From the UHGV virus genome UHGV-0135630: a DNA stretch of 57,694 bases; one strand, written 5' to 3'. The notes under the pieces are model-generated. The model had not been told where the DNA came from. It searched no databases and was given only the letters and a program-made list of their open reading frames with translations. Origin of the DNA: a virus. Position 1 is the first letter of the stretch. The number at the start of each line of letters is the position of its first letter. The position numbers were made by a program, and so were the translations under genes. This document shows, piece after piece, positions 1,821 to 52,608 of the stretch.

Positions 1821-1834
1821 GGTAAGTGCTTACC
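1821..1834. promoter_or_regulatory. GGTAAGTGCTTACC palindrome (motif B) in the divergent regulator promoter region
   Basis: Inverted half-sites GGTAAG/CTTACC about 30 bp upstream of the regulator start; same motif recurs in at least 13 other intergenic spacers. Confidence 0.4.
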
Positions 1835-2040
1835 GATATTACATCAAAGGTTAGGGTTGTAAAGCTATTATCATTTTTTTCGATAGGCACTTAAAAGACC
1901 GGTTAAAGGCCATTGCACGGAGAAAAATTAGCCCAAAACAGGTAAGAAAATCAACTTGCATATGATATGAATGTATTCAGTATTGATACAAATTTTAGTA
2001 GTATTCCTTACCATAGTATAAGTTAGAATGGATTGATTGA

Positions 2041-2253
2041 ATGAACACCACTATTTCCAGCCTAATCGCTCTTGAGATCGGACACGTACAGAAATTAGCT
2101 GATGAGTGTGTAGCTGACATCCTCACCGATCTACCGAATGAGCAGATTCAGGTTGGTGTGAATGACACAACTGGATTTATATTCGAACTTAACAACAAAC
2201 GCTTCACGCTTCTCAATACCGGCTCCGGGTCTTTAGCCGTCAGAATCTGTTAA
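2041..2253 (+). CDS. hypothetical protein
   Basis: 70 aa ORF divergent from the regulator. Confidence 0.4.
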   Translation: MNTTISSLIALEIGHVQKLADECVADILTDLPNEQIQVGVNDTTGFIFELNNKRFTLLNTGSGSLAVRIC

Positions 2254-2351
2254 CCCCTCTTCTCCCTGCGCGAATGGCTTAGTTCCCTGTTCGCGCAGTG
2301 CTACATTAAACACACTAGTAAATAATTTGTTTTCATAACAAAGGATTAGCC

Positions 2352-4460
2352 ATGTCTAAAAAACGTTCCATCAAAGAGGTTCAGGACTTCCGTGACAGTG
2401 TAAAACGAGTAGTCGCTCTCCTTTCAGGTAAAAACATCCCTGTTGCAGAACGAGGAGACGACGCTTATGTACGCTATAACGATGATGGAGAGCCAATTCT
2501 CGTAAACATCCCATCAATCCCGGATAACGCAACACCGGCATTGATGAATGCTGTGCGCGGATTTCTCGATCATGAGGTTGCTCACATTTTGTTTACCGAT
2601 ATTCGTGTGTCCAACAAAATGAGAGAAAAAGGACGCGTTCCTTCCTGGTCGCTATGGAATGCCTTAGAAGACGTGTTCATCGAGCGAAAAATGGGTCAGG
2701 TCTTTAACGGAACAAGACGTAATCTGATGGCAACTCAGCGCCTTATAATCGAAAAAGTCTTTAAACCAAAGGCTTCAGAGGCTATTGCTTATTGTGGCAA
2801 AGATCAGCGCGCGCTTTTTCTAAACTTCTTTCTCTGTCCGGTTGTAAGAGCCTGGGATGGCCAAGCACCGTTCGTAGATTTCATGGATGAATATTGGCCT
2901 GTCATTGAGAAACCAATTTCATTATTAAAAGAACATGGTATCGATGTGGCCGTGCGTAACATGTCTTGCACCGAGGATTGTGTAAAGGTGGCTGCGACCA
3001 TAGCTAAGATCCTCAAAGACACTGAAAGTGAAAGCAAAGGTAAGGAGTCAGCTCCGGGAAAAACTTCCGATCCTTCAGACGCTGACCAGACGGATGCCTC
3101 TGGAGAAAACAATGAAGACAACGAAGATCATGAGACACCCTCATCGTTAGATAATCACAAATCTATTAAATCAGAGTCACATAGTAAGCACAAACATGAT
3201 AATAACGAAAGTGATGATTCAGATAATCCTGAATCATCAGAAACAATATTCGATGATACAGAAAATGATAAAGCGGTATCAGATTCTGATGCTTCTGATA
3301 ACGCGGCGTCAGAATCATTAACCGCTGACCACGAAAAAAGAAAAACGACAGAAGACGGCCCTTCAGACATTCCAACTCCGTCAAAAATGAGTCTGGAAGA
3401 GGCTTTAGAGGAGTTGGATAGCATGGAAGATGAAGTCGGAGGCATGACAGAAGATGCGCTATCCGAAACGATTAAAAGCGAGTTAACAGAAAGCTCGAAA
3501 AGCGAATACAGGCCATACAATCGCTCATACGACTTCATCGGCTCGATTGATCAGGCAGAAGCCCATATCAAACGGCTTATTAAAACATTCTCCGATATTG
3601 ATTTAGGTGGATATCCAATCAGCCGTTATCGCATCGTTCCTGAAGGCAACCAACTCTTCGACAAATATATTGAAAAGCACCTTTCGTCAGGTGTTTCGTC
3701 GACGCTGGCAAAAGACCTGGAACGTGCAATAGCAAGCAGAAACAGAGTTCAGTTTATACCTGGCCAGCGTCGGGGGCGCATTCATGGTTCAAGTATCTAC
3801 AGATTAACAATGAATGATGATCGCGTGTTTCGTAAAAAAGAAGAATCTAAAGCCGTTAACGCCTGTGTTCAACAAGTGATTGATTTATCGGGTTCAATGA
3901 GTGGCAAAACGATAAAACTAGCTCTTGCAAGTGCATATACCATCGCCGATGCACTTGATCGAATAAATGTTCCCAACATTATCACCGGCTTCACTACATT
4001 TGGCAGTCATATGGCAGCAGGAGAACTTAAGGCTATCAAATATGAGTTCTCTCGCTTTGAATCTTTAATGCTACCTATCATCAAAAATTGGAATGAAAAA
4101 GCAAATTCTCGCGAAGTTCGCTCACGTATGGGGTGCGTAGGCTACACATTCCCACTTCTTAATAACGTGGATGGTGAAAGCATAGCCAGCCTTGCATCGT
4201 TATTTTCCGGTCGCTTGGAGGACAGGAAGATCATGCTTGTTCTGAGCGATGGCGCGCCGTGGGCTGTTGGGAGAGGTTTTGACGCCCATTTGCGTTCGGT
4301 TACGAAGCAAATTGAAACGCAGACTGACATTGATTTGATGGCAATTGGCATCATGACTGATGCACCGGAGAGATTTTACGCAAATCATGCCCTGGTAACT
4401 AGTGTTGATAGTCTTGGTTCATCTGTAGTTACTGAACTATCTCGTATCATTTTGAAGTAA
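2352..4460 (+). CDS. von Willebrand factor A domain protein (CobT-like) with acidic linker
   Basis: 702 aa; MIDAS-like VIDLSGSMSG; long D/E/S-rich low-complexity middle; HEVAH (HExxH-like) near N-terminus. Confidence 0.65.
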   Translation: MSKKRSIKEVQDFRDSVKRVVALLSGKNIPVAERGDDAYVRYNDDGEPILVNIPSIPDNATPALMNAVRGFLDHEVAHILFTDIRVSNKMREKGRVPSWSLWNALEDVFIERKMGQVFNGTRRNLMATQRLIIEKVFKPKASEAIAYCGKDQRALFLNFFLCPVVRAWDGQAPFVDFMDEYWPVIEKPISLLKEHGIDVAVRNMSCTEDCVKVAATIAKILKDTESESKGKESAPGKTSDPSDADQTDASGENNEDNEDHETPSSLDNHKSIKSESHSKHKHDNNESDDSDNPESSETIFDDTENDKAVSDSDASDNAASESLTADHEKRKTTEDGPSDIPTPSKMSLEEALEELDSMEDEVGGMTEDALSETIKSELTESSKSEYRPYNRSYDFIGSIDQAEAHIKRLIKTFSDIDLGGYPISRYRIVPEGNQLFDKYIEKHLSSGVSSTLAKDLERAIASRNRVQFIPGQRRGRIHGSSIYRLTMNDDRVFRKKEESKAVNACVQQVIDLSGSMSGKTIKLALASAYTIADALDRINVPNIITGFTTFGSHMAAGELKAIKYEFSRFESLMLPIIKNWNEKANSREVRSRMGCVGYTFPLLNNVDGESIASLASLFSGRLEDRKIMLVLSDGAPWAVGRGFDAHLRSVTKQIETQTDIDLMAIGIMTDAPERFYANHALVTSVDSLGSSVVTELSRIILK

Positions 4461-4555
4461 TTAAAACAGCCTTAATGATAAGTAACTACTTACCATAGTT
4501 AATGGTATATTTATATAAGAACTTGAACGCTCATTAGAGAACAAAGGAAAAGCGC

Positions 4556-5791
4556 ATGACTACTACTGCACTGCAAAATGATAAAAATCCTTCTGATTAC
4601 CTTGTTTGCAAGTGGTGCGGCAAATCATTTCACTATTTTAAGTCCCATGTAGCCAATGGTAATTGCGAGGGCATTCCTGAGTCAGTAAAAGATGCCGATC
4701 CTGACACCGTACTGAAAATGTACACAACGCAGTTTCCAGATGAACCAACGCTATCGAAAAAGGCACTTGATGCAATTCAAGCTAAACGTGCCGAGCAAAA
4801 AAGCGAAATGGCGAAATCTTCTGGCTTGACCAGTAGCCCAGGCTACACAGGCACAGTTGAGTACAAGACAGATCTGGTCGCAGCTCACGAACTGCTAAAC
4901 GTAACGGTGGAAGAACTCGGAACAAAACGTGGGACGCCGCTCATGGTTAGCGTCAACGTCAATACGCCGTATCCAGAGTTCGTTCCAGAAGTGAAGAAGG
5001 GCTACGTATATGGCGACTTCGAACTGATCAAAGATATTTTCATGATGCTTGAACTTGGCATACCTGGCTATTTGTGGGGTCATGCAGGAACAGGCAAATC
5101 GTCATTGCCTACACAGCTATGTGCTTTGCTCAATCGTCCGTTGATCCGTGCCCAACATACAGCATCAATGGAAGAGGCACATGTTACGGGGCAAATTCTG
5201 GCGCGTGATGGCTCTACGTATTTCGAGCCTGGCTTGCTTGCGCTCGCAATGAAGCATGGCTGGGTTTACCTCGCGGATGAATACGACTTTGCGTTTCCAC
5301 AAATTCTTGGCGTGTATCAGCCAGTGCTGGAAGGTGAGGCGTTGGTCATCAAAGAGGCAAATCCAGAATGGCGTCGCATTACTCCGCATGAACGGTTTGC
5401 TTTCATTGGCACTGGCAACACAAACGGTTCTGGTGATGAAACCGGCTTGTACCAGGGTACAAACATCCAGAACGCCGCGAACTTTTCACGTTTTGGCATC
5501 GTTTCGAATGTGAAATACATGAGCAAAGAGGCAGAGATCAACATGTTGATAAATGCCGGCATCGTGGATGAATACGCTGAAAAGATGGTTAAGTTTGCCG
5601 GTATCGTTCGCGATGGATATGAAGAACACCTTATCAGCCAGCCAATTGGGCCTCGTGAGCTTTTGTTGTCGGCCAAGATTGGAATGATGCGAGGCGACTT
5701 TGTGACAGGTATTGAGCGTTCTTTCATTAACAAACTCCCTTCAGCTTCTGCGCAAGCGGCTCGTGAAGTTGTTCAAAAAATATTTGGTTAA
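4556..5791 (+). CDS. AAA+ ATPase (CobS/MoxR-like)
   Basis: 411 aa; Walker A GHAGTGKSS, Walker B VYLADEYD; Cys/His cluster at N-terminus; directly downstream of the vWA gene. Confidence 0.7.
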   Translation: MTTTALQNDKNPSDYLVCKWCGKSFHYFKSHVANGNCEGIPESVKDADPDTVLKMYTTQFPDEPTLSKKALDAIQAKRAEQKSEMAKSSGLTSSPGYTGTVEYKTDLVAAHELLNVTVEELGTKRGTPLMVSVNVNTPYPEFVPEVKKGYVYGDFELIKDIFMMLELGIPGYLWGHAGTGKSSLPTQLCALLNRPLIRAQHTASMEEAHVTGQILARDGSTYFEPGLLALAMKHGWVYLADEYDFAFPQILGVYQPVLEGEALVIKEANPEWRRITPHERFAFIGTGNTNGSGDETGLYQGTNIQNAANFSRFGIVSNVKYMSKEAEINMLINAGIVDEYAEKMVKFAGIVRDGYEEHLISQPIGPRELLLSAKIGMMRGDFVTGIERSFINKLPSASAQAAREVVQKIFG

Positions 5792-5793
5792 TC

Positions 5794-5997
5794 GTGCGTA
5801 AAGGATGTTTCGGCTCTCTTATCGCTGCTTCTGAAACTGGCAAGGCTTGTCTGGGGTGTCCAGACAAGCCCGATTGTCACCAATCAGCAAAAGAAGTTGC
5901 GATTTCGATGTATGGGAAGTTCGTAGGCTTCCCCAATGACAAAATCAAAAAAACCAGAAAGGTAAAAACACATGAAGGCACTGATGGTTCGAACTGA
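5794..5997 (+). CDS. hypothetical small Cys-rich protein (GTG start, uncertain)
   Basis: 67 aa ORF without a clear RBS; overlaps the polymerase start. Confidence 0.25.
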   Translation: MRKGCFGSLIAASETGKACLGCPDKPDCHQSAKEVAISMYGKFVGFPNDKIKKTRKVKTHEGTDGSN

Positions 5998-8900
5998 CTT
6001 CTCACTTGGGGAGTCGGCTCTAAAAGCAGAAAACGCGGTGAAGATTGCCAGAGAAGCTGGCTACACCGCTGTAATTTCAGCAGATAGCATGAATATTGCA
6101 AGTGTTATTCCACTACAACGTGCCGCTGGTGACGACATGGCGGTTATTTGTGGTGTGAAACTAAACATTGTTGATGATCCCACATACGAGCACCGGGCTA
6201 AACTTGCTAAAGAATCTATGAGATGTATGGAATCATTAGAGCGGGGACGTAACTACTCGTTTACCGCTCTAATTAAAAATGAGCAAGGATATCGCGACAT
6301 CTGCGAACTAATGACGGCGGCCAACACACGAGAACAGTTCTACTTTGTACCGCGTCTCTCGCTCGAACAGTTGGTTTCTACATATGCCAAAGGCAACATC
6401 ATCCTGCTTACTTCCGACATCGGTAGCGTGTTCCAACGCAACGATTTTGCAAAAATCATAAGCACACTGATTACAGCGGGTGGAAAAGACAACTTCTATA
6501 GTGTGGTTTATCCGCACCCTACCCCATTCTACGACCAGATTAACGTCCGGGCGATGAAAGTCGCCAGCGCATTGAAAATAGAGCCAGTGGCGTTCTATCC
6601 CGCTTATTACGAATCGATCGACGATGCAGACATTAAAGACATCGCGCACATGGTTACGAACAACATCAAAATCGACCAGCCGCATCGTCTGCGTATCCCC
6701 CACCAGCGAGATAACGCCGTCAATGGTCGCCGCCATCTCCTTGAGGCGCTTAAAGCCTTCTCCGTTCGCATGGATGTGCCTGTAACAGCTGCAATGGCCT
6801 CAACAACGCAGGATACCATTATCGATTCCTGCACATGGCGCTGGCATGAATTGCCACCAGCACTGCCAAAGATGGCAGACGACGAGCCTGCAACGCTTAT
6901 GAAACTGGCTGTTGCAGGGCTGCGTAAACGTCTTACCACAAAAGAGTTTGGCTACACACCACCTGCTTCTGAGAACAGGGTTTATGTTGAGCGGCTAAAG
7001 TACGAAATGGACACGCTGACTCGCCTGGGATTTTGTGGTTACTTCCTGATGGTACGCGATCTGATGAATCATAGTCGTGAAACTGGCATTCCCGTTGGGC
7101 CTGGTCGTGGTTCCTCTGCCGGTTCTCTGGTGGCGTGGTGCATAGGCATAACCAACGTCGACCCAATCCGTCACGGTCTTCTGTTTGAGCGTTTCATCAA
7201 CCCTGAGCGTCTCGACTTGCCGGATGCGGACTTGGACTTCAGCCAGGCACGTCGCCATGAGGTGATCGAGTATCTGAATGAACGCTACGGCGAAGATTAC
7301 GTTGCGGGTATTCCGAACTTCACCTACCTGGGCGCAGCCTCTGCACTACGTGATACCGCTCGTATTTATGGTGTGGAGTCCGCAGATATGGCGGTATCAA
7401 AAGAACTGAAGAACGCTGAGGATGATAGCCTTCCATTGGAAGAACTGCGCGAACAACTGGCAAGTCTCGACAAATACGCAACAAAATATCCTGATGCATT
7501 CAATGCAGCCTGCAAGTTACAAAGCCTTATGCGTGGCTTTGGTAGACATGCGGCAGGGATGATCGTAGCAGGTGTTCCTCTGACAGAACGTACACCGGTT
7601 GAGCGCCGTGGTGACGCGCGTTGTATCGCATTTGACAAGCGTTACTGCGAGGCTATGGGCCTAATTAAGCTGGACGTGCTTGGCCTGGCAACTCTCGATT
7701 TGCTCGATAGTGCAAAACGCTACATAAAAGAGAACACAGGTGAAGATATCAATCTTGATGCCATTTCTCTTGAAGATCGCAAGGTGCTGGATGGTTTTGC
7801 TGCTGGGTACACTCAAGGTGTTTTCCAGCTTGAATCAGGCCCAATGCGCAAGCTGCTTAAAGATTTAGGTGGTGGAATTGAGCCAATGAGCTTTAAAACG
7901 GTCGTCGCTACAACTGCGCTCTTCCGGCCGGGGCCAATTCAATCAGGCATGTTGGATGACTATGTTTCTGTCGCCAAAGGCTTTATGACGCCGGAATCAT
8001 TACACCCCGTTCTTGATGAACTTACCGCGGAAACAAATGGCGTGATTCTCTATCAGGAACAGACGATGAACGCGACTCGATTGCTTGCCGGCTTCACAAT
8101 GGCTGAAGCTGACGCTGTGCGTTCCGCAATCGGTAAGAAGAACATGGAAAAAATGAAGAGCATGGGCGAGAAGTTCATCGTTCAGGCTCAAGCTGGCTGG
8201 ATAGACGTTGAGCTGGAAGATGGCACTACACAGCGCATTCACCGTGCGGAACATTTTAAATGCGAAGACGGAACTCTGAAAACTGTCGAAGAGGCACTTG
8301 AGCACGGCGCAAAACTACCTATAAACGCAGTACGCGTTACAGCGTCACATCCAGGGCTATCAGAGATGAAAGCGAAGGAGATCTGGACCGCATTTGAGAA
8401 AAACGGAGCCTATCAGTTCAATAAATCACACTCCGTTGCTTATTCTTTAATCAGTTATCAGTCTATGTGGCTAAAGACGCACTACCCTGCTGAGTTCTTC
8501 GCAGCTGCGCTCACCATTCTGGGCGAGGATAAGCATCAGGGGCTGGTGAAGGATGCGCTGACCTATGGCATTCGCGTATTGCCACCAGACGTTAATGTGT
8601 CATCTAACCGAATTGAGATCCGCACACTCGAAGACGGCAGTCAGGCACTGTATGCGCCATTCTCTGCTGTGAAAGGCTGTTCTGAAAATGGTTGTCAGGC
8701 AATTATGCGTGCGCGTGAGAAAGTTGGTGGCAAATTCGAGTCAGTGGCACAATTCGATGAAGCGGTCGAGAAGCGTGCATGTAACAGTCGTGTACGCGAG
8801 TCGCTTCATAAAGTAGGGGCTTTTGCGTCAATTGAGCCAGGCAGTCTGCCAGCAACTGATCCTGAACGACTGCGCGACCAGGCTGAGCTGATGGGCAATC

Positions 8901-9490
8901 TCATCATTGACGCTGTTAAAGCATCACGTCCGTTCGAAATGAATCCTAAGCGTTCTGCCGAAATCAACGTACTCATGACACGTATGGCGGCTGAAATGGG
9001 CTTGGGTGAGGAGTTGATACGCCCGACTATTGGTATTAAACCCAAAATCATGATCATTCTGGACAATGCGAACGGCAATGACGCTCGTACCGGCTACTTC
9101 ATGGAGAACGGATACGACGACTTTAAGGCAAAACTACTGACAGTTGGAGATCTGCGCATGGGCGATCTTTATGTCACGGGTGTTTGTAAGAAGGTTAAGG
9201 ACAAAGAGAAAGACTATACCAAAGACGAGATAGGCCAGTTCACAGACTTTATGCGGGAAGAAATTAATCTTGTACGACCAACCTACATTTTGACGTGTGG
9301 TAGTCGTTCAACCGCACTATTTAACAATAAGAGTAAACCATCAGATCTGATTGGTCGTAAGGAGTACTTCCCAGAGCTTGATGCAACCGTCTTCTACGGA
9401 TTTAACCCGAATATCCTGTACTTCCGACCGGAAGAAGGAGAGCGACTGGAGGCCATTCTGGCTGATATCGCGGAGACAATAAATAAGTAA
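5972..9490 (+). CDS. dnaE: DNA polymerase III alpha subunit-like replicative polymerase (PHP domain + Pol III alpha core)
   Basis: 1172 aa; GFCGYFLMVRDL...GPGRGSSAGSLVAWCIGITNVDP and FERFINPERLDLPDADLDF are DnaE hallmarks. Confidence 0.85.
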   Translation: MKALMVRTDFSLGESALKAENAVKIAREAGYTAVISADSMNIASVIPLQRAAGDDMAVICGVKLNIVDDPTYEHRAKLAKESMRCMESLERGRNYSFTALIKNEQGYRDICELMTAANTREQFYFVPRLSLEQLVSTYAKGNIILLTSDIGSVFQRNDFAKIISTLITAGGKDNFYSVVYPHPTPFYDQINVRAMKVASALKIEPVAFYPAYYESIDDADIKDIAHMVTNNIKIDQPHRLRIPHQRDNAVNGRRHLLEALKAFSVRMDVPVTAAMASTTQDTIIDSCTWRWHELPPALPKMADDEPATLMKLAVAGLRKRLTTKEFGYTPPASENRVYVERLKYEMDTLTRLGFCGYFLMVRDLMNHSRETGIPVGPGRGSSAGSLVAWCIGITNVDPIRHGLLFERFINPERLDLPDADLDFSQARRHEVIEYLNERYGEDYVAGIPNFTYLGAASALRDTARIYGVESADMAVSKELKNAEDDSLPLEELREQLASLDKYATKYPDAFNAACKLQSLMRGFGRHAAGMIVAGVPLTERTPVERRGDARCIAFDKRYCEAMGLIKLDVLGLATLDLLDSAKRYIKENTGEDINLDAISLEDRKVLDGFAAGYTQGVFQLESGPMRKLLKDLGGGIEPMSFKTVVATTALFRPGPIQSGMLDDYVSVAKGFMTPESLHPVLDELTAETNGVILYQEQTMNATRLLAGFTMAEADAVRSAIGKKNMEKMKSMGEKFIVQAQAGWIDVELEDGTTQRIHRAEHFKCEDGTLKTVEEALEHGAKLPINAVRVTASHPGLSEMKAKEIWTAFEKNGAYQFNKSHSVAYSLISYQSMWLKTHYPAEFFAAALTILGEDKHQGLVKDALTYGIRVLPPDVNVSSNRIEIRTLEDGSQALYAPFSAVKGCSENGCQAIMRAREKVGGKFESVAQFDEAVEKRACNSRVRESLHKVGAFASIEPGSLPATDPERLRDQAELMGNLIIDAVKASRPFEMNPKRSAEINVLMTRMAAEMGLGEELIRPTIGIKPKIMIILDNANGNDARTGYFMENGYDDFKAKLLTVGDLRMGDLYVTGVCKKVKDKEKDYTKDEIGQFTDFMREEINLVRPTYILTCGSRSTALFNNKSKPSDLIGRKEYFPELDATVFYGFNPNILYFRPEEGERLEAILADIAETINK

Positions 9491-9496
9491 TAAAGA

Positions 9497-9520
9497 AAAC
9501 CCGCCTGTTGGCGGGTTTAT
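9497..9520 (+). terminator. rho-independent terminator after the polymerase gene
   Basis: aaaacccgcctgttggcgggttt hairpin followed by T/A-rich tract. Confidence 0.5.
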
Positions 9521-9793
9521 AAAGAATTATGGCGCTTGTTGAGGAAGTCACTCCTCTTACGCACTTTGTTTTGCCATGCCGGCAGTTAGCTTCTGCCTTT
9601 GACTATTCATGCGGCAACCCCGCATTTCGCCACAATGGGCAATTCACTTTTATGGAATAAACTGGCCGTTGTGTCGATTTAATTAGCATGGCCTTACCAT
9701 GCTAATTTATTCAACTTGTACAATCCTACAAATCTATCCACTCAGGCTTACACCGTCTTCGTTATTGTAGAAATGAGGATCATCAGCGTTGAA

Positions 9794-10009
9794 TCAGCTT
9801 AGAGCAACGACATTTGCTGCTGCTGGGCCTTTAGCCCCATTCTCGATAGAGAATTCGACCTGCTGGCCTTCTTCCAAAGTGCGGAAATTATTACTCTGAA
9901 TTGCCGAAAAATGTACAAAAACATCTTTACTGCCATCAGCAGGAGAAATAAAGCCAAAGCCTTTATCAGAGTTAAACCATTTTACTAAACCAGTCATTTT
10001 ATTAGACAT
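9794..10009 (-). CDS. cspA: cold-shock protein, CspA family
   Basis: [37 protein letters not shown] is near-identical in pattern to E. coli CspA; start moved to the internal Met of the 103 aa ORF. Confidence 0.85.
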
Positions 10010-10338
10010 AGATATTACCTTCTTAATTTTGTGAGCCACATAGTGCGGCGAGAATTTGATCTGTATAGATTGGGACTTACTTAGGCACTTAAGGAGGAGA
10101 CTCACGAAGAAGGGAAATCAGAAGATAACACTGAACTGAGACTGCTTTACTAAAACTGCTTACATAAGGTCTGTCTTGCAAACCAACGATGCTATTAACG
10201 CATACCCCTTCTTTTCATGCAACCTTTATTTTTCAAAGATAACTAATTTTTGTCACCATTGGTTTAGTAAACGTTAACGAACCAGACGATGCCAGACACC
10301 ATTACAGAGAACAGATGCCCGCCAATTGGCGGGCATCA

Positions 10339-10902
10339 TTATGCGCATTTCGCAATATCTTTGCGGCGTTTAATCAGTTTCTCCGCAATTTGCTCTATTT
10401 CGTTGAAATCTTTCGAGACGCTGTTTCGAAGCGCCAGATTCCATTTACTCAAAGTTCGGGCATTTTGGACAATTTGATCGCCCTCTTTAAGTCGTCCGTT
10501 ATTCATGAGCCATTCAGCCACATCAGCCCAATCCCAGAGAGGAGACTGGCCTTTTATGCGTTGTACAGGGCAAGGGAAGTCGCCGCTTCCGCGCTTACCG
10601 TCTTTGAGCAACGCCACTGCCTGGCGAGACAGGTCTGTCAGTTCCGCGATATCGCTTAAGCCCACAAGAGCCGAGTCGACGGATTCAACAATTGCACCGA
10701 TACCGGCTGATTCAATATTGTCGACCGCAGATGCGATAGCTGCATCAAGTGATTGTGCTTCGCGGTCAAATTCTACATAGACGGAGTTTCCATATGCGCA
10801 AATTAGCGCATCGTCACAGCCGTTTTGGTACAGCGCGTCTTCCAGTCCTTCCGTCTCATACGATACGCCTGAGAGCGTCAGAGTGAAGTTATAAAGCGCC
10901 AT
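10339..10902 (-). CDS. hypothetical protein (possible C-terminal DNA-binding region)
   Basis: Start at internal Met with AAAGGA RBS; no confident family recognised. Confidence 0.45.
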   Translation of the reverse strand: MALYNFTLTLSGVSYETEGLEDALYQNGCDDALICAYGNSVYVEFDREAQSLDAAIASAVDNIESAGIGAIVESVDSALVGLSDIAELTDLSRQAVALLKDGKRGSGDFPCPVQRIKGQSPLWDWADVAEWLMNNGRLKEGDQIVQNARTLSKWNLALRNSVSKDFNEIEQIAEKLIKRRKDIAKCA

Positions 10903-10962
10903 AGTTTTCCTTTGAAGATAGTTGGACAGTTTCTGCAAAAGGCGGCTAATGCCGCCTTGAAA

Positions 10963-11187
10963 TCATTTACAACGATCAACCATTCGTTTGATCTGTTTGG
11001 CATGGTTTTCGGGATTACCCGGAGTCGACCATACGCTCATTTGGTGAGTTTTGTGTTCACCTTCTGGATTACCGCATCGCAGTCTGCAAAAACAATGTGC
11101 AGCACCACCAGCTGCTACCCAGATCCAGCCTTTACTTAATGCATAGTCAATGGCTGCTTGAATATGCTTATTCGGATGTTGCTTCAT
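10963..11187 (-). CDS. hypothetical small Cys/His-containing protein
   Basis: 74 aa; GGAGG RBS; HCFCRLRC...H cluster; co-oriented with and 24 nt upstream of the previous gene. Confidence 0.45.
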   Translation of the reverse strand: MKQHPNKHIQAAIDYALSKGWIWVAAGGAAHCFCRLRCGNPEGEHKTHQMSVWSTPGNPENHAKQIKRMVDRCK

Positions 11188-11440
11188 TCGCCTCCGATAA
11201 TAGTATTCTATTCACAGTGTTGACATCTGTCAACGGCGACTGAATTTCATCCGTTCATGCCACACCCCATCCATCTCATGTATGTGACCTAAAGATGGTC
11301 AGCACAGCTTACCAAAATAAGACAACTAATTATCTTCGGTGATCTCAATATTTTCCCCTGAACAAAGTTGACATGACGCCATAAACCCGTTCTCTGTTTG
11401 ATATAATTGATACAGATTTTATAAGTAGGAACCTATTAGA

Positions 11441-11872
11441 GTGAACACTGATATTTTTTCTAAAATCATGGCCGATCTGGAGTTCGACCGCGACAACCTT
11501 GAGGAAGTATGGCGTAAACAGCCACGGCTTTTAATGGAGTATGGGTCAAAACTAGCGCAGGCAGATCGAGATGTCGCAGAGGCAAAACTTAACCTTGAAG
11601 CTGTTGAAGCAAAGCTATACGACACAGAGCGTAAGAACTTGAGTATGAACGGCATTAAGTTCAACGAGTCTGTACTGGACGCTAAGGTTAAAACAAACCC
11701 ACAGTATCTGTCTAAACGGCAGAAGTTGGATGAAGCACGGCACATCGCAGACATATACAAACATGCTGTCGCCGCCTTTTCGCATCGCCGAGACATGATC
11801 GTTCAGGCGTCAAAGATGGCCATCGTTGAATTAGAGCGATTAGGCTCTGAACGCTTTATTACTCCCCGTTGA
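11441..11872 (+). CDS. hypothetical protein, possibly UvsY-like recombination mediator
   Basis: 143 aa helical protein next to SSB and RecA-like genes; weak resemblance to T4 UvsY from memory only. Confidence 0.3.
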   Translation: MNTDIFSKIMADLEFDRDNLEEVWRKQPRLLMEYGSKLAQADRDVAEAKLNLEAVEAKLYDTERKNLSMNGIKFNESVLDAKVKTNPQYLSKRQKLDEARHIADIYKHAVAAFSHRRDMIVQASKMAIVELERLGSERFITPR

Positions 11873-11989
11873 TTTTTGATAGATAATAAGTAAGTACTGA
11901 TCTATCATTTAACAGCTCGAAAGAGCCACGAATGAACGAAAGCCCAACGCGCATAGCGCCATCGGCCAAATCACAACAAGGAGAAACAC

Positions 11990-13018
11990 ATGTCTAAGAC
12001 ATTACTTGATTTGCTTAACAAAACTCGTGAAGACATTGCCGCCAAACGTGGCAACAACGTTGATCTGACTCGCTTAAAAGACGGCGTCAACTATATCCGC
12101 ATCTTCCCGAATAAAGACGACCCAAACGGTAAGTTCTTCCAGACTTTCGGTATGCACTACGTTAAGTATCAGAACGAGGAAGGTAAAGAAGCAACCAACG
12201 CTTATATTTGTGAGCAACATACTCACGGTCGCGCTTGTCAGCTATGCGAAATGGTTATGGAAGGTCGCGCTCGTCACAAGGGCAACAAAGCAATGGAAGA
12301 ACGCATCGGTCAAATGCGTGCCACTCCTCGCTACCTGGTCAACGGCATTCTTTCTGCTCGTGAGGATTTCGCAGATGCTGAGAAATGCCAGTTAATCGAG
12401 CTGCCGTCTACTGTATTCGATGATATCTGCAAAGCAATCACCGAAGACATCGCTGATGATATCGGCAATCCACTGAGCAAAGAGGAAGGCTACGCATTCC
12501 TGATTAAACGTACTGGCTCTGGTCGCGATACCAAATATGACGTCTCGCCTAAGCGTAAAGTCTACAAAGGCGATATCGAAGATAAATTCTGGAACACCCA
12601 GCATGATCTGATCGCATACGCAAATCAGGCTGATGAAACTCGTCTTCTGTCGACAGTTCGCACTATGGGTCGTCTGATTGGCATCGCTGCACCAACTGCC
12701 GCAGCATCTGCACCAGCAATTTCCTCAACCGCGAAAACATCGGCTGCGGCACTACCTGGATTTGGCTCTGTCACTGGTCATACGGAGGGTGCGACTGCTG
12801 TAGCAACCGCTCACACCCCAGCTTCTGAACCAACCAGTCTGGTTGATGAAGAAATCCTCCGTGCCGTTGAAACTGAATTTAAACCAGAAGCAAGTTCCGC
12901 TGCCGTTGCCGTATCAGTCAAAGAGTCTGAAGCAGTCGCAGCGACATCTGTAGCAGCCGCATCTGCGACGGAAGATGAAGGTCTGGATGACCTACTGAGA
13001 GAGCTGGACTCTCTGTAA
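11990..13018 (+). CDS. single-stranded DNA-binding protein, T4 gp32-like
   Basis: IRIFPNKDDPNGKFF, Cys/His cluster CEQHTHGRACQLCE, Ala/Ser-rich linker, acidic C-terminus DEGLDDLLRELDSL. Confidence 0.65.
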   Translation: MSKTLLDLLNKTREDIAAKRGNNVDLTRLKDGVNYIRIFPNKDDPNGKFFQTFGMHYVKYQNEEGKEATNAYICEQHTHGRACQLCEMVMEGRARHKGNKAMEERIGQMRATPRYLVNGILSAREDFADAEKCQLIELPSTVFDDICKAITEDIADDIGNPLSKEEGYAFLIKRTGSGRDTKYDVSPKRKVYKGDIEDKFWNTQHDLIAYANQADETRLLSTVRTMGRLIGIAAPTAAASAPAISSTAKTSAAALPGFGSVTGHTEGATAVATAHTPASEPTSLVDEEILRAVETEFKPEASSAAVAVSVKESEAVAATSVAAASATEDEGLDDLLRELDSL

Positions 13019-13034
13019 TCCCATTACGTGACCA

Positions 13035-13060
13035 GTAAGGCGTCTACGGACGCCTTACTT
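13035..13060 (+). terminator. rho-independent terminator (GGCGTC...GACGCC hairpin family)
   Basis: taaggcgtctacggacgcctta + T-run; same stem recurs near 15369 and 16510. Confidence 0.45.
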
Positions 13061-13078
13061 TTTGGAAGGAATGTACCG

Positions 13079-14023
13079 GTGAATTATCTCTTCGTAGATG
13101 GCAATAGCCTGGGTTATTACCACCAACAATCTGACAAATTGCACAACGGCGAAATGGAAGTACAGGCTGCTTTCGGCTTTGTTAAGAACGTCCGTCGTTA
13201 TGCCTCCATCCTCCATGCCCGACCTATGATTCTTTGGGATGGATTTAGTGACAAGCGTCGCGACTTTTACCCGGACTACAAAGCAAATCGCGACGACGAT
13301 CCTGATATGAAAAAGATGAAGGAAGGCTTTGCTATCCAGAAGCCATACATCCTCAAAATGATGACCGCGCTTGGAGTTACCCAACTCATTGCAAAAGATG
13401 CAGAAGCGGATGATCTGGCCGGGCTGCTGGTATCCCGCATGGCACCGCAGCCAACCGTTGAACACATCTATCTGTTAACAGGCGATAGCGACTGGCTTCA
13501 GTTAGTTCGTGAAAACGTAAGCTGGGTAAGCCTGCGTGAAGACGCCAAAAACAAGCAGGTTAATTTTGAGCAATTTGCGGAGCTGACAGGATTCGCCACG
13601 CCTCGCGCATTTTTGGAAGCAAAAGCATTACAAGGCGATAACTCGGACAACATTAGCGGTGTTGGTGGCATTGGTGCTGGCGGTGCGAAAGAGCTGCTGC
13701 ATGAATGGGGAAGTGTCGCAACGATGGTACGCGGCATCAACGACGGCTCAATCGTGGTTAATAAAGGGCGTCATAAGACCGCCTTCAACAAACTAGCGAA
13801 GAATGCCTTCAACGAGAAAACAGGCTGTCGAATGCTCGAAGCGTTCAAGAGAAACATCACGCTAATGAACCTGATTGAGACGAAGTTTCCGCCTACCGAA
13901 ATCGAAACAATCAAAGGCAATCGTGACGTGAAAGCATTCGAGCAACTGTGCTACGAGCTGAATTTCCGTTCGTTCCTTGAAGATCTTGAAGTGTTTGTTC
14001 TTCCATTCGAAAGGTATTGCTAA
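13079..14023 (+). CDS. 5-prime to 3-prime exonuclease / flap endonuclease
   Basis: YLFVDGNSLGYY and NISGVGGIGAGGAKELL are FEN/Pol I 5-3 exonuclease motifs; GTG start after AAGGA chosen downstream of the terminator hairpin. Confidence 0.8.
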   Translation: MNYLFVDGNSLGYYHQQSDKLHNGEMEVQAAFGFVKNVRRYASILHARPMILWDGFSDKRRDFYPDYKANRDDDPDMKKMKEGFAIQKPYILKMMTALGVTQLIAKDAEADDLAGLLVSRMAPQPTVEHIYLLTGDSDWLQLVRENVSWVSLREDAKNKQVNFEQFAELTGFATPRAFLEAKALQGDNSDNISGVGGIGAGGAKELLHEWGSVATMVRGINDGSIVVNKGRHKTAFNKLAKNAFNEKTGCRMLEAFKRNITLMNLIETKFPPTEIETIKGNRDVKAFEQLCYELNFRSFLEDLEVFVLPFERYC

Positions 14024-14289: not shown

Positions 14290-14291
14290 TC

Positions 14292-42296: not shown

Positions 42297-42409
42297 TAGG
42301 TAAATGCTTACTTAATTTATGTAAGAATGTAGTAATTAAACGATAAGAGAAAAACACATGAACAACCTCCATTCATGCCTGATCAACCTATTCTGATGGT
42401 CACATCCAG

Positions 42410-42619
42410 ATGGTCATTAACAGTCATGAGAAAGGCTGGGCTGCGATCGTCCCATGCAAAATTACATACAAGTTGGCGAAAGAAGTTAAAGAGCTTCGAA
42501 ACGCCAGTAGCGAATCGGAGTCTACCAAAGCCGCAATAAACACTCTTATTCGCATGGGGTTCACATGGAACGGTGGAGCTTACTGGCAAGCACCTCAACC
42601 CATTTTATCCGGCAATTAG
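42410..42619 (+). CDS. hypothetical protein (uncertain)
   Basis: 69 aa ORF; a 12-codon mini-ORF with consensus start context lies just upstream. Confidence 0.3.
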   Translation: MVINSHEKGWAAIVPCKITYKLAKEVKELRNASSESESTKAAINTLIRMGFTWNGGAYWQAPQPILSGN

Positions 42620-42799
42620 GCGCCACAAATCCTTCTGCATGAATAAATAAAGGCCATAACTTATGGCCTTAAATAAATTGTTTTCTACCTTTTCTTGTTT
42701 GTGAAAATAACCACAACTAGAAAACAACGGAGTTAAGAATGTCTCGTATTTCCGAAGCACATATGTTCGCCGCTGGCATCCGTATCAAAGGAGAATGAT

Positions 42800-43471
42800 A
42801 TGACCACTATAACCAGAGAAAGCGCGGAGATTAAATCATTCATCAATGGCTTCCTGAGCGACCCGGCGCATGATAACCAATCTTCAGACAGCCTGCTTGC
42901 CAATGTGTTTCGTATCGCACAGGCATCGCTGGAAGCAAAACCAATAGGAGCATTCCACATTGCAGAACAGCAAGTTGACGGCACAAGTGACTACCTCAAG
43001 GATGGAGAATGGCCTATTGATAATGGGACAATTGAAGTATACGCCGTCCCACCAGTGCCAGTAGTACCGGAAGAAAAACCAATGCCTAACCCTCTTAGCA
43101 TGTACGCGGTTGATGCTGTTGCTGCTATTGCAGAGGTGAGAGGCTGGAATGCCTGCCGCGCCGCCATGCTTCAGAGTCAAGATAGTGGCATTAAGGATGG
43201 TTGGATAAGCTGTAGTGAGCAGATGCCTGTAATTGGCGAGCTAAATTGGAGAACTAGTTTTCCTTTGCTGATTACGTGTGAGATGGGCGTTATACCAGCT
43301 TATTACGGCTTTGTGAGCGTTAATGGGGATAAGCATTATGGTTTTATGGAAAGTTTTAAATACGGAGACGATCGCGGCGGCCATCCTCAAACTAATGAAT
43401 ATGGTCTGATTAGCAATGTAACCCACTGGATGCCACTACCAGAACCGCCACAGGAGTCGAAGAGTGAATAA
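42800..43471 (+). CDS. phage protein of unknown function, DUF551-like C-terminus
   Basis: 223 aa; C-terminal THWMPLPEPP pattern; preceded by a 19-codon upstream mini-ORF. Confidence 0.5.
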   Translation: MTTITRESAEIKSFINGFLSDPAHDNQSSDSLLANVFRIAQASLEAKPIGAFHIAEQQVDGTSDYLKDGEWPIDNGTIEVYAVPPVPVVPEEKPMPNPLSMYAVDAVAAIAEVRGWNACRAAMLQSQDSGIKDGWISCSEQMPVIGELNWRTSFPLLITCEMGVIPAYYGFVSVNGDKHYGFMESFKYGDDRGGHPQTNEYGLISNVTHWMPLPEPPQESKSE

Positions 43472-45456: not shown

Positions 45457-45476
45457 TACTGTATGTATATACAGCA
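45457..45476. promoter_or_regulatory. LexA box TACTGTATGTATATACAGCA
   Basis: Near-consensus SOS box (CTGT-N8-ACAG with TA-rich spacer) about 17 bp upstream of the umuD-like ATG. Confidence 0.7.
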
Positions 45477-45492: not shown

Positions 45493-45882
45493 ATGGGCTT
45501 CCCTTCTCCTGCGGCGGATTATGCTGAGAGCCGTATTTCTCTTGATCAGCACATAATTAGACATCCTTCAGCTACCTACTTCATGAGAGCAACTGATAGC
45601 CATCAGCGTGAGGGAATATTGCAGGGTGCATTGCTGGTGGTCGATTCCTCACTTACCCCGGTTGATGGTTCTCTGCTTGTGTGCGCTATGGAGGGGGAAT
45701 ATCGCGTAAAAAGATACCGGAAGTATCCACGTCAGCATCTGGAGGATTTAAGAACCGGTAAGAAGGAAACATTGCCAAAGGATGATGATGGATGCACGGG
45801 CAGCAATGCCGTGTTTGGAGTGATCACTCACATTATCAACGACGCAAGAAGTGGCGAATTTGATGATTGTCCTGTGATGTAG
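45493..45882 (+). CDS. umuD: UmuD-like S24 peptidase (orphan, no umuC partner)
   Basis: 129 aa; GFPSPAADY N-terminus, Ser in ATDSHQ, Lys in EYRVKR, C-terminal FGVITHIIN; LexA box upstream. Confidence 0.7.
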   Translation: MGFPSPAADYAESRISLDQHIIRHPSATYFMRATDSHQREGILQGALLVVDSSLTPVDGSLLVCAMEGEYRVKRYRKYPRQHLEDLRTGKKETLPKDDDGCTGSNAVFGVITHIINDARSGEFDDCPVM

Positions 45883-51189: not shown

Positions 51190-51335
51190 CATACAGGGAA
51201 AAGGCTGCATCCCGCTACAGAAACGGCTGGGTTGCCTTCGGGGAACGGCTGGAGGTTTTCAGGGAAACGGTCGAGTTGCCTGTGTGGATTTCGGGAAAAG
51301 GCTCGATGCCGGTTCAGGAACGGCGGCGTACCGGT
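51190..51335. repeat. array of about 6 GGGAAACGGCTG-like repeats at roughly 20-30 bp spacing
   Basis: cagggaaaaggctg, agaaacggctgg, ggaacggctgg, gggaaacggtcg, gggaaaaggctcg, ggaacggcggcg. Confidence 0.5.
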
Positions 51336-51687
51336 ATAGCGAGAGGGAGAGTTGCGGCTACCCACCTGTAATGTGCGGGAAGAAGAGAGGCGCTCACGTG
51401 CAGGCGAACTTACTTACCGCTGGATTCCCTCTGAATGCCCAACTACAGCGTAATTGTGCCAGACAGTCAGCGGGTCACAATCGATTTCAGTAGGTTTTCG
51501 GGGAGAGGATTATTCTGCCCACCAGCCATCTTCGGCCACTAAATCAGAATAATGTAAAAAGTGTACTCGATACTGAACCTGAAAACTCACTGCCAAAACA
51601 ACATTCACCGGAATAAAATCCTTTTTAGCCTGTGCGTTATTGCGATAATAACACCAACGAGAAAACAAGTTGTTTAAGGATTGCTTT

Positions 51688-52017
51688 ATGTTTGCAAATA
51701 TCGACATCAACCAAATCAAGAAATTAACTCAAAAAGAGTTTGATCAGTTTTATGAGTTAGAAGGTTGGTCTTCCACTCTGATCAATTCGCGGTGGGTGCT
51801 TGAGCTGATGACTCGTGATGACGCACCTGCTTTGATGATTTGCGACATGGGTGAAGATGCTGACTTTATGGATATGAGCGAATTTTGTGTGGACACATAC
51901 AACCGCAGCCAGAAGTACTACTTCACATGCGATAGCGAAAATGACGTGATTTCTAAGGTCTATCTTCACCTCGTCCAGCATTGGGACGTTCAGGAGTTTC
52001 TTGAAGTATTCGAGTAA
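51688..52017 (+). CDS. hypothetical protein
   Basis: 109 aa from ATG after AAGGA; motif A upstream. Confidence 0.45.
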   Translation: MFANIDINQIKKLTQKEFDQFYELEGWSSTLINSRWVLELMTRDDAPALMICDMGEDADFMDMSEFCVDTYNRSQKYYFTCDSENDVISKVYLHLVQHWDVQEFLEVFE

Positions 52018-52170
52018 CCCCAACCAAAGCCAGCATTGCTGGCTTAATTTCTCTATAGCCGCAGGGAAGAACCTGCATATCGCTCATGCACCTGATCAAT
52101 ATGCTTTGTAGCCGTTTTCTTACTGGTATTATTTACGCCATTGAGAAAACAAGTTGTTTACGGAGTTGTG

Positions 52171-52482
52171 ATGAAAAAATCATTGGTTCTTGGTCTGGAC
52201 AAAGACCAGAAGAGAAAAGAGAAGCCTGCGCTGGTTGCTCAATTAACTTTGCTGGACATCGTTGCCAATGGAACCTCTATTCGTCTGTTCCGTGAAACAG
52301 CGGTGTCTTTCGATAAAAACACCTTTACTCGTTATGTAATGAATGTTCGTCGCCAGCGTGGAAAAGGCTGGGTGGCATTTCAAAGAATGTGGCCGGAACA
52401 TCAGCTCGAACTGGCTTTGATGGAAGTTAACCGCGTGGCCCAGCAAGAGATTCAGAGAGCATCAGTGATGGCAATAGCCTGA
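52171..52482 (+). CDS. hypothetical protein
   Basis: 103 aa from internal ATG; motif A upstream. Confidence 0.45.
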   Translation: MKKSLVLGLDKDQKRKEKPALVAQLTLLDIVANGTSIRLFRETAVSFDKNTFTRYVMNVRRQRGKGWVAFQRMWPEHQLELALMEVNRVAQQEIQRASVMAIA

Positions 52483-52608
52483 TAATGTGCAAGTGGTAAT
52501 TAGTCGACCGTACGACAGCCCCGCCATCCTTACGGGGCTTTTTTGTATTGTAAGTACATACTTACGATCATAGAATATAAAAATAACCAAAACACTACGG
52601 AGAGTGAA

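Follow-up and report, generated by a model that had tools for sequence, protein, structure and literature searches.

In mycobacteriophage L5 and the other cluster A phages, an operator and about 24-30 stoperators read by the immunity repressor gp71 are spread over the genome, mostly in short intergenic gaps, with one site at the early promoter/immunity region. The L5 sites are 13-bp, asymmetric and orientation-dependent, and their reader is a monomer with two DNA-binding domains; the sites other than the operator are believed to halt elongating polymerase, which would silence the prophage (PMC9283540). In the plasmid prophage P1, one repressor, C1, acts on about 22 operators over about 94 kb at many unlinked operons and autoregulates its own gene, and its operator is an asymmetric 17-mer, ATTGCTCTAATAAATTT, found in 22 copies (PMC8546580). 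The late genes of P1 are reached indirectly, via Lpa. C1 is a 283-aa protein unrelated to the XRE family. The CI-Cro systems of lambdoid phages, 434 and P22 use palindromes of 14-20 bp, a dimeric repressor of the XRE/HTH_3 fold whose recognition helix determines specificity, and an autoregulatory site, with about six sites in one or two immunity regions. In the IncP plasmid RK2, KorA and KorB bind short palindromic operators at many promoters (7 and 12 sites) for coordinated repression of the backbone, KorB being a ParB-family CTPase acting at a distance.

The DNA analyzed here, a stretch of 57,694 nucleotides (hereafter the window), shares about 97% identity with Cyrano, a phage-plasmid of E. 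coli. The SSU5-like plasmid-prophages form a family that includes Yersinia pestis pMT1. An earlier note on the window had described a dispersed palindrome with the core GGTAAGT-N-ACTTACC. This literal core has no match, even with two mismatches. The real motif (hereafter motif B) is a 20-bp palindrome whose half-sites, ATAGGTAAGT and ACTTACCTAT, abut directly without a central spacer. Its 20-mer consensus, ATAGGTAAGTACTTACCTAT, showed six matches with up to three mismatches in the window and none in 100 shuffles. A weight matrix was trained on relatives only (SSU5, Klebsiella and pMT1) and the window was then scanned. At 15 bits or more, 10 sites were found against 0.01 expected from 200 Markov simulations; at 8 bits or more, 16 sites were found against 0.34 expected. 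The check for enrichment proposed in the note thus rules out a frequency set by AT-rich background. The palindrome is present where the note had placed it, far above chance, although its description was wrong, one copy (at 52547) is doubtful and another (at 1821) matches in its core only.

The strong sites of the window (24-28 bits) have 20-mer starts at 11886, 15406, 17359, 20866, 25550, 35102, 37317 and 42296. The site at 11886-11905 (ATAAGTAAGTACTGATCTAT, 26.2 bits) lies upstream of a gene for a gp32-like SSB and is orthologous in SSU5, Klebsiella and pMT1. At 15406-15425, ATATATAAGTACTTACTTAT occupies the 17-bp spacer of the TTGAAA/TATTAT promoter that the note had proposed, which was found at 15400-15428; it lies directly past a terminator (15370-15390), and the same architecture is seen in SSU5, pMT1 and Cyrano. 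The site at 17359-17378 (ATAAGTTAGTATTTACCTAT) scores 25.0 bits. Upstream of an SbcD-like gene, the site at 20866-20885 (ATAGGTATATACTTACTTAT, 27.0 bits) is followed 7-10 nt downstream by an extended -10-like element, TGnCATAAT, conserved in SSU5, Klebsiella and pMT1. The site ahead of nrdA (25550-25569, ATAGGTAAGTGCTTATCTAT, 28.2 bits) sits between the stop codon of a RuvC-like gene and a terminator hairpin at 25576-25597, and is orthologous in four genomes. That at 35102-35121 (ATAGGTATTTACTTACCTAT, 26.6 bits) ends 11 nt before the start codon of a Dam methylase, a position kept in Klebsiella. The sites at 37317-37336 (GTAAGTAAGTGTTTACCTAT, 25.6 bits) and 42296-42315 (ATAGGTAAATGCTTACTTAA, 24.4 bits) overlap the stop codons of RNase H and of a 561-aa gene, respectively, and TGtAAGAAT comes after the latter. 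A weaker copy upstream of thyX (30263-30282, ATGAATAAGTGGTTACTTAT, 15.0 bits) has strong orthologues in SSU5 and Klebsiella. The weak copy upstream of an AAA-ATPase (cobS-like) gene (4478-4497, ATAAGTAACTACTTACCATA, 12.1 bits) has orthologues in an Enterobacter plasmid and in the lineage with a variant XRE helix described below. The doubtful copy at 52546-52565 (8.5 bits), which follows a terminator, reads GTAAGT-4-ACTTAC with a different spacing, and the relatives that were scanned showed no motif B copy at the equivalent place.

Beyond what the note had covered, motif B extends over the whole genome of about 105 kb and reaches the structural and lysis genes outside the window. About 21 sites per genome were found in Cyrano, SSU5, Klebsiella and pMT1. 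In Cyrano, the annotated near-identical genome, 20 of the 21 sites are intergenic at an intergenic fraction of 13% (P=3.7e-17). Many copies lie 4-14 nt past a stop codon, which agrees with the note, or 1-12 nt before a start codon. The sites occur in the early and the late (virion, lysis) regions alike; motif B precedes both DNA-metabolism and virion genes, and among the genes directly downstream of a copy are those for portal, the capsid region, tail, tail fibre and holin. For 18 of 19 Cyrano sites, two or more of SSU5, Klebsiella and pMT1 have an orthologue. Across the orthologous sites in these three relatives, identity is 89% within motif B and 56-64% in the flanks.

Two simple explanations are disfavoured. 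In one, motif B would have arisen by chance in AT-rich intergenic DNA or would be a functionless selfish repeat. The intergenic DNA of the window is indeed AT-rich, and scores close to background were obtained for the weakest copies on the list (52546, 3147 and 10065). The enrichment and the conservation across genera (positional orthology, and motif identity well above that of the flanks), however, refute such an origin, and neither flanking repeats nor target duplications were seen; we give it practically no credence. In the other, motif B would work at the RNA level, as a hairpin in polycistronic transcripts that serves as terminator, RNase III site or translational operator. Perfect copies do fold into hairpins of 7-11 bp with -7 to -8 kcal/mol, and their frequent position next to stop or start codons would suit such a function. 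However, compensatory variation was absent at all 10 mirrored pairs, where bases pair just as often as independent columns predict. At positions 4/17 the Fisher test gave p=0.78, and 18 of the 61 unique sites have an A-C mismatch there. No stable fold was obtained for the 25-26-bit copies at 17359 (-0.2 kcal/mol) and 11886 (z of 0 or more), a U-tract is absent and no Rfam match falls on a motif B site. An RNA hairpin is accordingly very improbable. Since the half-sites vary independently, they point to a DNA site for a dimeric protein rather than a hairpin. The information profile is symmetric, and with its two-fold symmetry and with halves kept as sequence, not as pairing partners, motif B is, as far as sequence can tell, a site for a dimeric DNA-binding protein.

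On balance, motif B is probably the operator of a dimeric HTH repressor, most probably a 128-aa XRE-family protein encoded at 1403-1789 on the minus strand. This protein is identical to CYRAN_45 and has a weak Pfam match to HTH_19 and a PHROG match to 'transcriptional regulator'. A study of LF82 names CYRAN_45 as putative repressor and finds its expression in lysogens to be about 10-fold over background (PMC9928086). Of the 14 genes for which it reports expression in lysogens, none stands first after a strong motif B site. The AlphaFold model of the XRE protein shows an HTH with a predicted recognition helix at residues 41-47; a weak similarity in fold links it to dimeric XRE proteins such as C.AhdI, 434 Cro, HigA and Stl, and a Salmonella phage repressor is also among the neighbours.

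The recognition helix, YKNANNLSLIKSGK, is constant wherever motif B is constant, at 48-66% overall protein identity. In one lineage the helix is rewritten (YQNQV for NANNL; YKYQNQVSF/YRYQNHVSL), and this lineage has a shifted half-site, GTATGTATGT: T at position 4 was found in 8 of 20 half-sites there, against 7 of 150 (p=3e-5). The DNA of this lineage has a second palindrome, motif A, in its usual form. An Acinetobacter relative has the helix KRPNVLSM and another palindrome, with the half-sites TCAGTCAGT and ACTGACTGA. The covariation of helix and motif is essentially one evolutionary event in one lineage, of which about 30 kb was read. Since this lineage, at about 75% nucleotide identity, is as diverged as lineages that kept motif B, another regulator could have changed in parallel. 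The XRE family is also unusually invariant for an immunity repressor, which counts against this reading. A host factor is an unlikely binder, because two E. coli-borne lineages use different motifs.

As the note had claimed, a copy of motif B lies at the promoter of the XRE gene. The predicted sigma70-type promoter, TTTACA-16-TAATAT (1863-1836, minus strand), has both hexamers conserved in three genera, and the copy TCTGGTAAGTGCTTACCGAT (1818-1837) is directly downstream of its -10. Its 14-bp core at 1821-1834, GGTAAGTGCTTACC, is perfect and conserved across genera, yet the copy scores below 8 bits because of mismatched outer triplets, and no other copy matches the full palindrome so poorly. 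Klebsiella and pMT1 retain the block TGGTAAGTnCTTACyGATATTACA...TTGTAAA between diverged flanks, and the core copy is also conserved in two more lineages besides E. coli, Klebsiella and Y. pestis, including the one with the variant helix. The reading of motif B as the operator of the XRE regulator is thus supported in part, by its operator-like sequence, its core copy at the XRE promoter and the covariation, whereas the XRE protein as the binder, repression by its binding and the roadblock function are what we infer from these patterns.

Overlap with a core promoter is clear at 15406, at Cyrano 3527, at the XRE promoter and at the extended -10 elements after 20866 and 42296. Promoter-like elements stand in at least three different registers relative to motif B, as would be expected for repressor operators and not for an activator of fixed geometry. 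Most sites have no recognizable -35-like hexamer, and no recognizable promoter was found at many of the late-region sites. Only about one third of the sites have a promoter-like -10 at a fixed register, a TAT(C/T)AT across the palindrome's right end, and -10-like hexamers at the fixed register number 26 on the gene side and 16 on the other (p=0.10), the tests of asymmetry being weak. Promoter occlusion is therefore apparent from sequence for a minority of sites only, and many copies may be roadblocks rather than promoter operators.

The same observations could be read in another way. A phage-encoded lytic regulator, either an activator of middle and late promoters or a Cro-like protein, may target motif B, replacing the missing -35 at about 20 promoters and shutting the XRE promoter by binding just past its -10. 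Besides the scarcity of -35-like hexamers and the TAT(C/T)AT at the right end, this would account for start codons that lie 30-32 nt after the motif start in several orthologues, as for leaderless transcripts, for the depletion of sigma70-like promoters in the 20-57 kb part of the window, for one motif before DNA-metabolism and virion genes, and for the perfect sites that SSU5 keeps without an XRE gene. However, Pfam and PHROG scans of small conserved proteins returned only 'unknown', ParB-like and FljA-like proteins and no candidate activator. The flanks mostly continue the palindrome symmetrically with A/T and do not resemble a directional -10; an activator that contacts RNA polymerase would not tolerate three or more registers; a terminator-like hairpin follows several sites within 0-11 nt; and the correlated change in the XRE recognition helix is left unexplained. 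We regard a lytic regulator as rather unlikely. Dispersed palindromes are typical of ParB-family proteins, such as at the KorB OB sites of RK2 and with Noc. Motif B might be a KorB-, Noc- or parS-like site for one of two ParB-N-domain proteins (Cyrano CYRAN_119/120), serving global silencing or DNA organization and not immunity. Cyrano, SSU5, Klebsiella and pMT1 all keep both genes, and the first ParB-like gene is preceded, at a distance of 37 nt, by a moderate copy (15.6 bits). This copy is, however, weak, motif B is excluded from coding DNA unlike parS and Noc sites, and neither the helix covariation nor the copy retained at the XRE promoter is explained. Binding by the ParB-like proteins is thus quite improbable.

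If motif B is the operator of the XRE protein, one small repressor would most likely keep the whole prophage silent through it. In the plasmid-prophage state the repressor would occupy about 21 palindromic sites, at almost every lytic operon junction, its targets being DNA-metabolism genes in the window and, outside it, the genes for the virion and for lysis. Where the site is inside a core promoter, as in the -35/-10 spacer at 15406, or covers the -35 zone of extended -10 promoters, as at 20866 and 42296, initiation would be blocked. At junctions with the site between a stop codon and a terminator hairpin and no clear promoter, the bound repressor may act as a stoperator-like roadblock to read-through. 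The imperfect copy just downstream of the -10 of its own promoter could provide negative autoregulation.

This layout resembles that of the mycobacteriophage stoperators more than that of P1 C1. As in L5, there are tens of sites across early and late operons, mostly in short intergenic gaps, one of them at the early promoter/immunity region. Unlike the L5 sites, motif B is a 20-bp palindrome that implies a dimer of a small single-HTH protein; the XRE protein showed no sequence similarity to the Stoperator domain or gp71. The element is a plasmid prophage of a Gram-negative host, and the roadblock role would hold here by analogy. The parallel with P1 C1 drawn in the earlier note is a loose one. 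It stands for the many dispersed sites for one (here candidate) repressor over a plasmid prophage; it fails for the asymmetric C1 site and for late control, since motif B lies directly before capsid, tail and lysis genes, and no Lpa-like protein was detected among the proteins covered by a non-exhaustive Pfam/PHROG scan. The lambdoid systems are similar in their palindromes, dimeric repressor fold and autoregulatory site, and 434 Cro is among the fold neighbours, but their sites are few and confined to the immunity regions, an S24 cleavage domain was not found in the XRE protein, and a tripartite OR-like cluster is not evident in the E. coli element. RK2 differs in its proteins and in its numbers of sites, and the ParB-like genes are tied to motif B by the one weak upstream copy only.

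SSU5 lacks the XRE and integrase genes and yet keeps 21 motif B sites, perfect ones among them, as well preserved as elsewhere despite the missing proposed binder. In this respect SSU5 parallels the lytic mycobacteriophage D29, which retains stoperator sites. D29 is described as a lytic deletion derivative of a temperate parent and lacks the repressor (PMC5712189). A binder still encoded by SSU5 would account for the preservation there just as well. Farther afield, a distant Klebsiella plasmid has motif-like copies near the XRE start, and in the Acinetobacter relative three degenerate copies are clustered in the XRE intergenic region.

Over window positions 174-20000, the element shares 96-97% identity with SSU5-like phage-plasmids of E. 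coli, namely Escherichia phage Cyrano (OV696614) and PhiR41_1; its identity to Salmonella phage SSU5 and to phage-plasmids of Klebsiella is about 79%. No phage-plasmid supergroup in enterobacteria is larger than that of the SSU5-like elements (PMC7969092). The family includes Y. pestis pMT1, and related elements bear resistance genes. The gene content of the window was read off the Cyrano annotation. It comprises an integrase, a "putative repressor" (the XRE-family gene, hereafter XRE), cobT/cobS-like genes, DNA polymerase III alpha, HicAB, UvsY/gp32/exonuclease/RecA-like genes, RepA, SbcCD, RuvC, NrdAB, MazG, ThyX, DHFR, Dam, RNase H, a block of small unknown genes, and UmuD-like, MinD/ParA-like and FljA-like genes. 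The genes for virion and lysis functions are located beyond the window. The FljA-like protein (174 aa, 56396-56920, minus strand) matches Pfam Flag1_repress, the family of the phase-1 flagellin repressor FljA, over its full length (E=5e-81); it is kept in SSU5 (80% identical) and labelled "transcriptional regulator" in Klebsiella and pMT1. Since 9769-10187 (minus strand) matches the cspA thermoregulator RNA at full length (RF01766, 186 bits), the phage-plasmid appears to carry a cold-shock protein gene with a 5'-UTR thermosensor. Sigma70-like promoter matches at positions 20001-57694 numbered 15 and 14, about half of the roughly 30 expected (sd about 5.5, shuffled sequence), and positions 1-20000 showed no depletion (27 against 30 expected).

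The earlier note had described a dispersed palindrome, here motif B, with the core GGTAAGT-N-ACTTACC. This literal core has no match in the window. Read at the positions which the note had named, the consensus is a 20-bp perfect palindrome, ATAGGTAAGT followed directly by ACTTACCTAT, and the window holds 6 matches to it with at most three mismatches, versus none in 100 shuffles. Because circularity was to be avoided, an independent weight matrix was trained only on the sites of SSU5, a Klebsiella plasmid and Y. pestis pMT. The enrichment that the note had proposed to check was evident with this matrix: 10 window sites reached at least 15 bits, versus 0.01 in 200 first-order Markov simulations. 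Eight of the proposed copies are strong, with 24-28 bits (11886, 15406, 17359, 20866, 25550, 35102, 37317 and 42296). Those at 30263 and 4478 are weaker, the copy at 1818 in the XRE promoter has a perfect 14-bp core with mismatched ends, and the one at 52546 is doubtful, its spacing being different. Over the whole genomes, the first matrix counted 25 Cyrano and 24 SSU5 sites of 12 bits or more, and the independent matrix found 21 in Cyrano at 15 bits or more.

The placement of the sites agreed with the earlier description. Twenty of the 21 Cyrano sites are intergenic, compared with an intergenic share of 13% of the genome (P=3.7e-17), and many lie 4-14 nt past a stop codon, as had been noted. 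Motif B is not limited to the early region; it also occurs in front of or within the portal, scaffold/capsid, tail, tail-fibre and holin genes. No strong site was found in the small-gene block of about 20 kb. The consensus is common to four other genomes, including an Enterobacter plasmid; SSU5 has 24 sites, Klebsiella pKP4823_2 has 22 and Y. pestis pMT has 18. Of the 19 strong Cyrano sites, 18 have a positional orthologue in two or more other lineages. In motif-anchored comparisons, pairwise identity was 0.89 inside the 20 bp versus 0.56-0.64 over 50 flanking positions. The feature is real and conserved, and the set of sites very probably represents the operators of a repressor.

A palindrome may also be conserved as an RNA hairpin. 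Among 61 unique sites, Watson-Crick/G-U pairing at the ten mirrored pairs equalled the prediction from independent columns, and positions 4/17 were GC in 16, GT in 11, AC in 18 and AT in 10 cases (Fisher p=0.78). Two of the copies with the best scores, 17359 (-0.2 kcal/mol) and 11886 (-2.2 kcal/mol), do not fold (z at least 0), and no Rfam match was found at the motif B sites. The hairpin reading was ruled out on these grounds, and the halves of motif B are therefore conserved as sequence. Judged from the sequences, such a pattern is typical of a symmetric dimer that would read two half-sites.

The relation of motif B to promoters and terminators is not uniform. As the note had pointed out for one copy, the site at 15406 lies in the 17-bp spacer of TTGAAA/TAT(C/T/G)AT, just past a terminator. 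A second site embedded in such a spacer is found inside the Cyrano portal gene, and both are kept in four genomes. A conserved extended -10-like element (TGnCATAAT or TGtAAGAAT) starts 7-10 nt past the motif at three junctions, those of SbcD, CYRAN_91 and CYRAN_34. At the XRE promoter, where a copy had also been noted, the core is located immediately downstream of the -10. At the capsid, tail, tail-fibre and nrdA junctions, motif B is followed within 0-11 nt by a hairpin, the stem of which shows compensatory substitutions between genomes. Directly beside the palindrome, the flanks mostly continue its symmetry in A/T bases. The gene side exceeded the mirror side for -35-like hexamers (16 vs 6) and, modestly, for -10-like hexamers overall (43 vs 27). 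The proposal that every copy is a promoter with its -10 at positions 18-23 was rejected, as only about 35% of the copies qualify and the mirror control gave 16 against 26 at this fixed register (p=0.10); such a promoter is predicted for a subset of the copies only. As far as hexamer matches can tell, a subset of the sites overlaps promoters in several registers, and the other sites are without an evident promoter. Since the overlap occurs in several registers, a repressor would fit better than an activator of fixed geometry.

The note had suggested XRE (128 aa, 1403-1789, minus strand) as the regulator that binds motif B. XRE shows a weak HTH_19 match, falls in a PHROG family annotated as "transcriptional regulator", and is identical to CYRAN_45, a putative repressor whose expression in LF82 lysogens is about 10-fold above the prophage background (PMC9928086). 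Homologues of XRE are carried by about 860 plasmids. A PDB sequence search with XRE found no relative, and the fold search with its model returned generic small dimeric XRE folds (434 Cro, C.AhdI, HigA and Stl), which were weak (E at least 0.01). Upstream of XRE, one block, TGGTAAGTnCTTACyGATATTACA...TTGTAAA, is conserved in E. coli, Klebsiella and Y. pestis, and it contains the motif B core and both promoter hexamers. In a distant Klebsiella plasmid, the XRE of which is 48% identical, motif-like copies adjoin the XRE start, and the XRE intergenic region of an Acinetobacter relative contains three degenerate ones.

The segment YKNANNLSLIKSGK spans the predicted recognition helix of XRE (residues 41-47, AlphaFold model, pLDDT about 84). 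It is nearly invariant across the lineages that share motif B, whereas the rest of XRE falls to 48-66% identity. A variant lineage (P0032 and relatives; loci L014, L018 and L019) has YKYQNQVSF or YRYQNHVSL at this helix, and its motif B sites, including the positional orthologues of 4478, 11886 and 15406, carry GTATGTATGT in one or both halves. T at half-site position 4 was found in 8/20 variant versus 7/150 standard half-sites (p=3e-5), and G at position 1 in 10/20 versus 26/150 (p=0.002). The variant lineage, whose complete contig (GCA_050572525.1 ABZCOC010000014.1) measures 103 kb, is as diverged (about 75% nucleotide identity) as lineages that kept the standard motif; the Enterobacter plasmid, with the standard helix, is only 72-77% identical to the variant backbone. 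In the Acinetobacter plasmid, the helix is KRPNVLSM and the palindrome also differs (TCAGTCAGT joined to ACTGACTGA). The copy at the XRE promoter and the covariation of helix and motif speak for the suggested assignment; the covariation is a single event seen over only about 30 kb of the variant lineage. XRE is the best candidate binder, and we consider the assignment plausible, with the balance slightly in its favour. Motif A, a second dispersed palindrome, is unchanged in the variant-lineage DNA in which the XRE helix and motif B are altered, and motif A was rejected as the XRE target on this ground.

There is another possible interpretation, in which motif B is the target of a lytic activator or a Cro-like protein. 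This would account for the absent -35 elements, for the sites preserved in SSU5 and for the start codons 30-32 nt past some copies, but the scanned proteins include no candidate, and the variable promoter registers and the adjoining hairpins speak against it. The ORF at 2041..2253, divergent from XRE, was rejected as a Cro-like binder: its product is acidic with no HTH, and SSU5, the distant Klebsiella plasmid and Acinetobacter lack it. Two ParB-N proteins are further conceivable binders, with one weak motif B copy upstream and no more. A host transcription factor was rejected, since the half-sites differ between two lineages carried by E. coli. The S24 protein (45493-45882, plus strand), considered as a split repressor, was also rejected: it resembles UmuD and has a consensus LexA box of its own (CTGTATGTATATACAG, 45459-45474) directly upstream. 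For the FljA-like protein (56396..56920), the ParB-like proteins and the small conserved CYRAN_37 and CYRAN_123, Pfam and PHROG gave no evidence of a link to motif B.

With XRE as the preferred binder, the system can be compared with known repressors. The likeness to P1 C1 that the note had drawn holds in that both systems belong to plasmid prophages and have numerous dispersed operators (22 in P1), but P1 C1 has an asymmetric 17-mer site, is an unrelated repressor and reaches late genes via Lpa (PMC8546580). The repressors of mycobacteriophage cluster A likewise have genome-wide intergenic sites at early and late operons; in contrast to motif B, their site is asymmetric and is bound by a monomer with a dedicated second DNA-binding domain (PMC9283540). 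From these comparisons and the XRE fold, motif B appears to be a palindromic operator of the CI/Cro style that is spread over the whole genome as in P1 or L5. No description of motif B was found in the searchable literature.

Compared with pMT1-type genomes, the whole integrase-XRE-ORF2041 module is deleted from SSU5, yet SSU5 has kept its motif B sites. Its positions 41800-42302 and 42674-43000 (L004) match pMT1 28292-28794 and 36652-36978 (L010/L011, reverse-complement coordinates) with 95-97% identity, and the interval between the matched blocks (within 42300-42675) is about 370 bp including tRNA-Asn. SSU5, which presumably grows lytically, parallels in this loss of XRE and retention of sites the lytic mycobacteriophage D29, which retains its stoperator sites. 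D29 is described as a deletion derivative of a temperate parent (PMC5712189).

A joint model may be put forward tentatively for SSU5-type plasmid-prophages, including Y. pestis pMT1, S. Typhi pHCM2-like and resistance-carrying Klebsiella and E. coli elements. One 128-aa repressor would act on about 21 palindromes at nearly every operon junction, by promoter occlusion and, as we infer, by a roadblock to read-through, even within the virion gene array. A few recognition-helix residues would switch specificity and create immunity groups. Although XRE lacks an S24 cleavage domain, Cyrano can be induced with ciprofloxacin (PMC9928086); induction would proceed without repressor cleavage, a conserved LexA-boxed integrase promoter transcribing convergently into the repressor gene. 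The whole combination, namely a Gram-negative dimeric-XRE analogue of stoperators with helix-switchable immunity groups and LexA-driven convergent induction, is rather unlikely to hold in all its parts. Nothing on lysogeny control of SSU5-like phage-plasmids was found in the searchable literature. The operator, the map of about 21 sites and the named candidate repressor make the lysis-lysogeny switch of this family directly testable, and immunity groups would be predictable from recognition helix and half-site. The model would explain the silence of a multicopy prophage of about 100 kb, and would be a second, independent case of genome-wide "silencer" sites, outside mycobacteriophages.

The LexA-box match CTGTTTACTTATACAG lies at 261-276, 29 nt upstream of the integrase start (305-1408, plus strand); Klebsiella, pMT1, Enterobacter, the variant lineage and the distant Klebsiella plasmid have a LexA box at the corresponding position. 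The integrase and XRE genes converge, with an overlap of 6 nt at the 3' end of the XRE gene, and transcription induced by the SOS response could for this reason disturb expression of the repressor.

The window contains 7 exact copies of the 13-mer motif A, AAACAAnTTGTTT (16555, 38224, 38953, 49296, 49347, 51663 and 52147), versus 0.03 expected. It is frequent in the small-gene block free of motif B, and is conserved in Cyrano, SSU5 and Klebsiella. Each copy is located 10-25 nt upstream of a start codon and adjoins the Shine-Dalgarno sequence. Since a GATAAT/TATTAT-like hexamer lies about 13 nt further upstream, motif A would sit at the 5' end of the transcript. An AT-rich element, GCCTGCTTCTGTATATATAAATAACTACATATTAATTATTAATATA, at about 35749-35800 contains a weak motif B match (35761/35765). 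An inverted copy occurs elsewhere in Cyrano (about 31179), and the element is also present in SSU5 (33469) and Klebsiella (76120); this could be a distinct repeat that serves another function.
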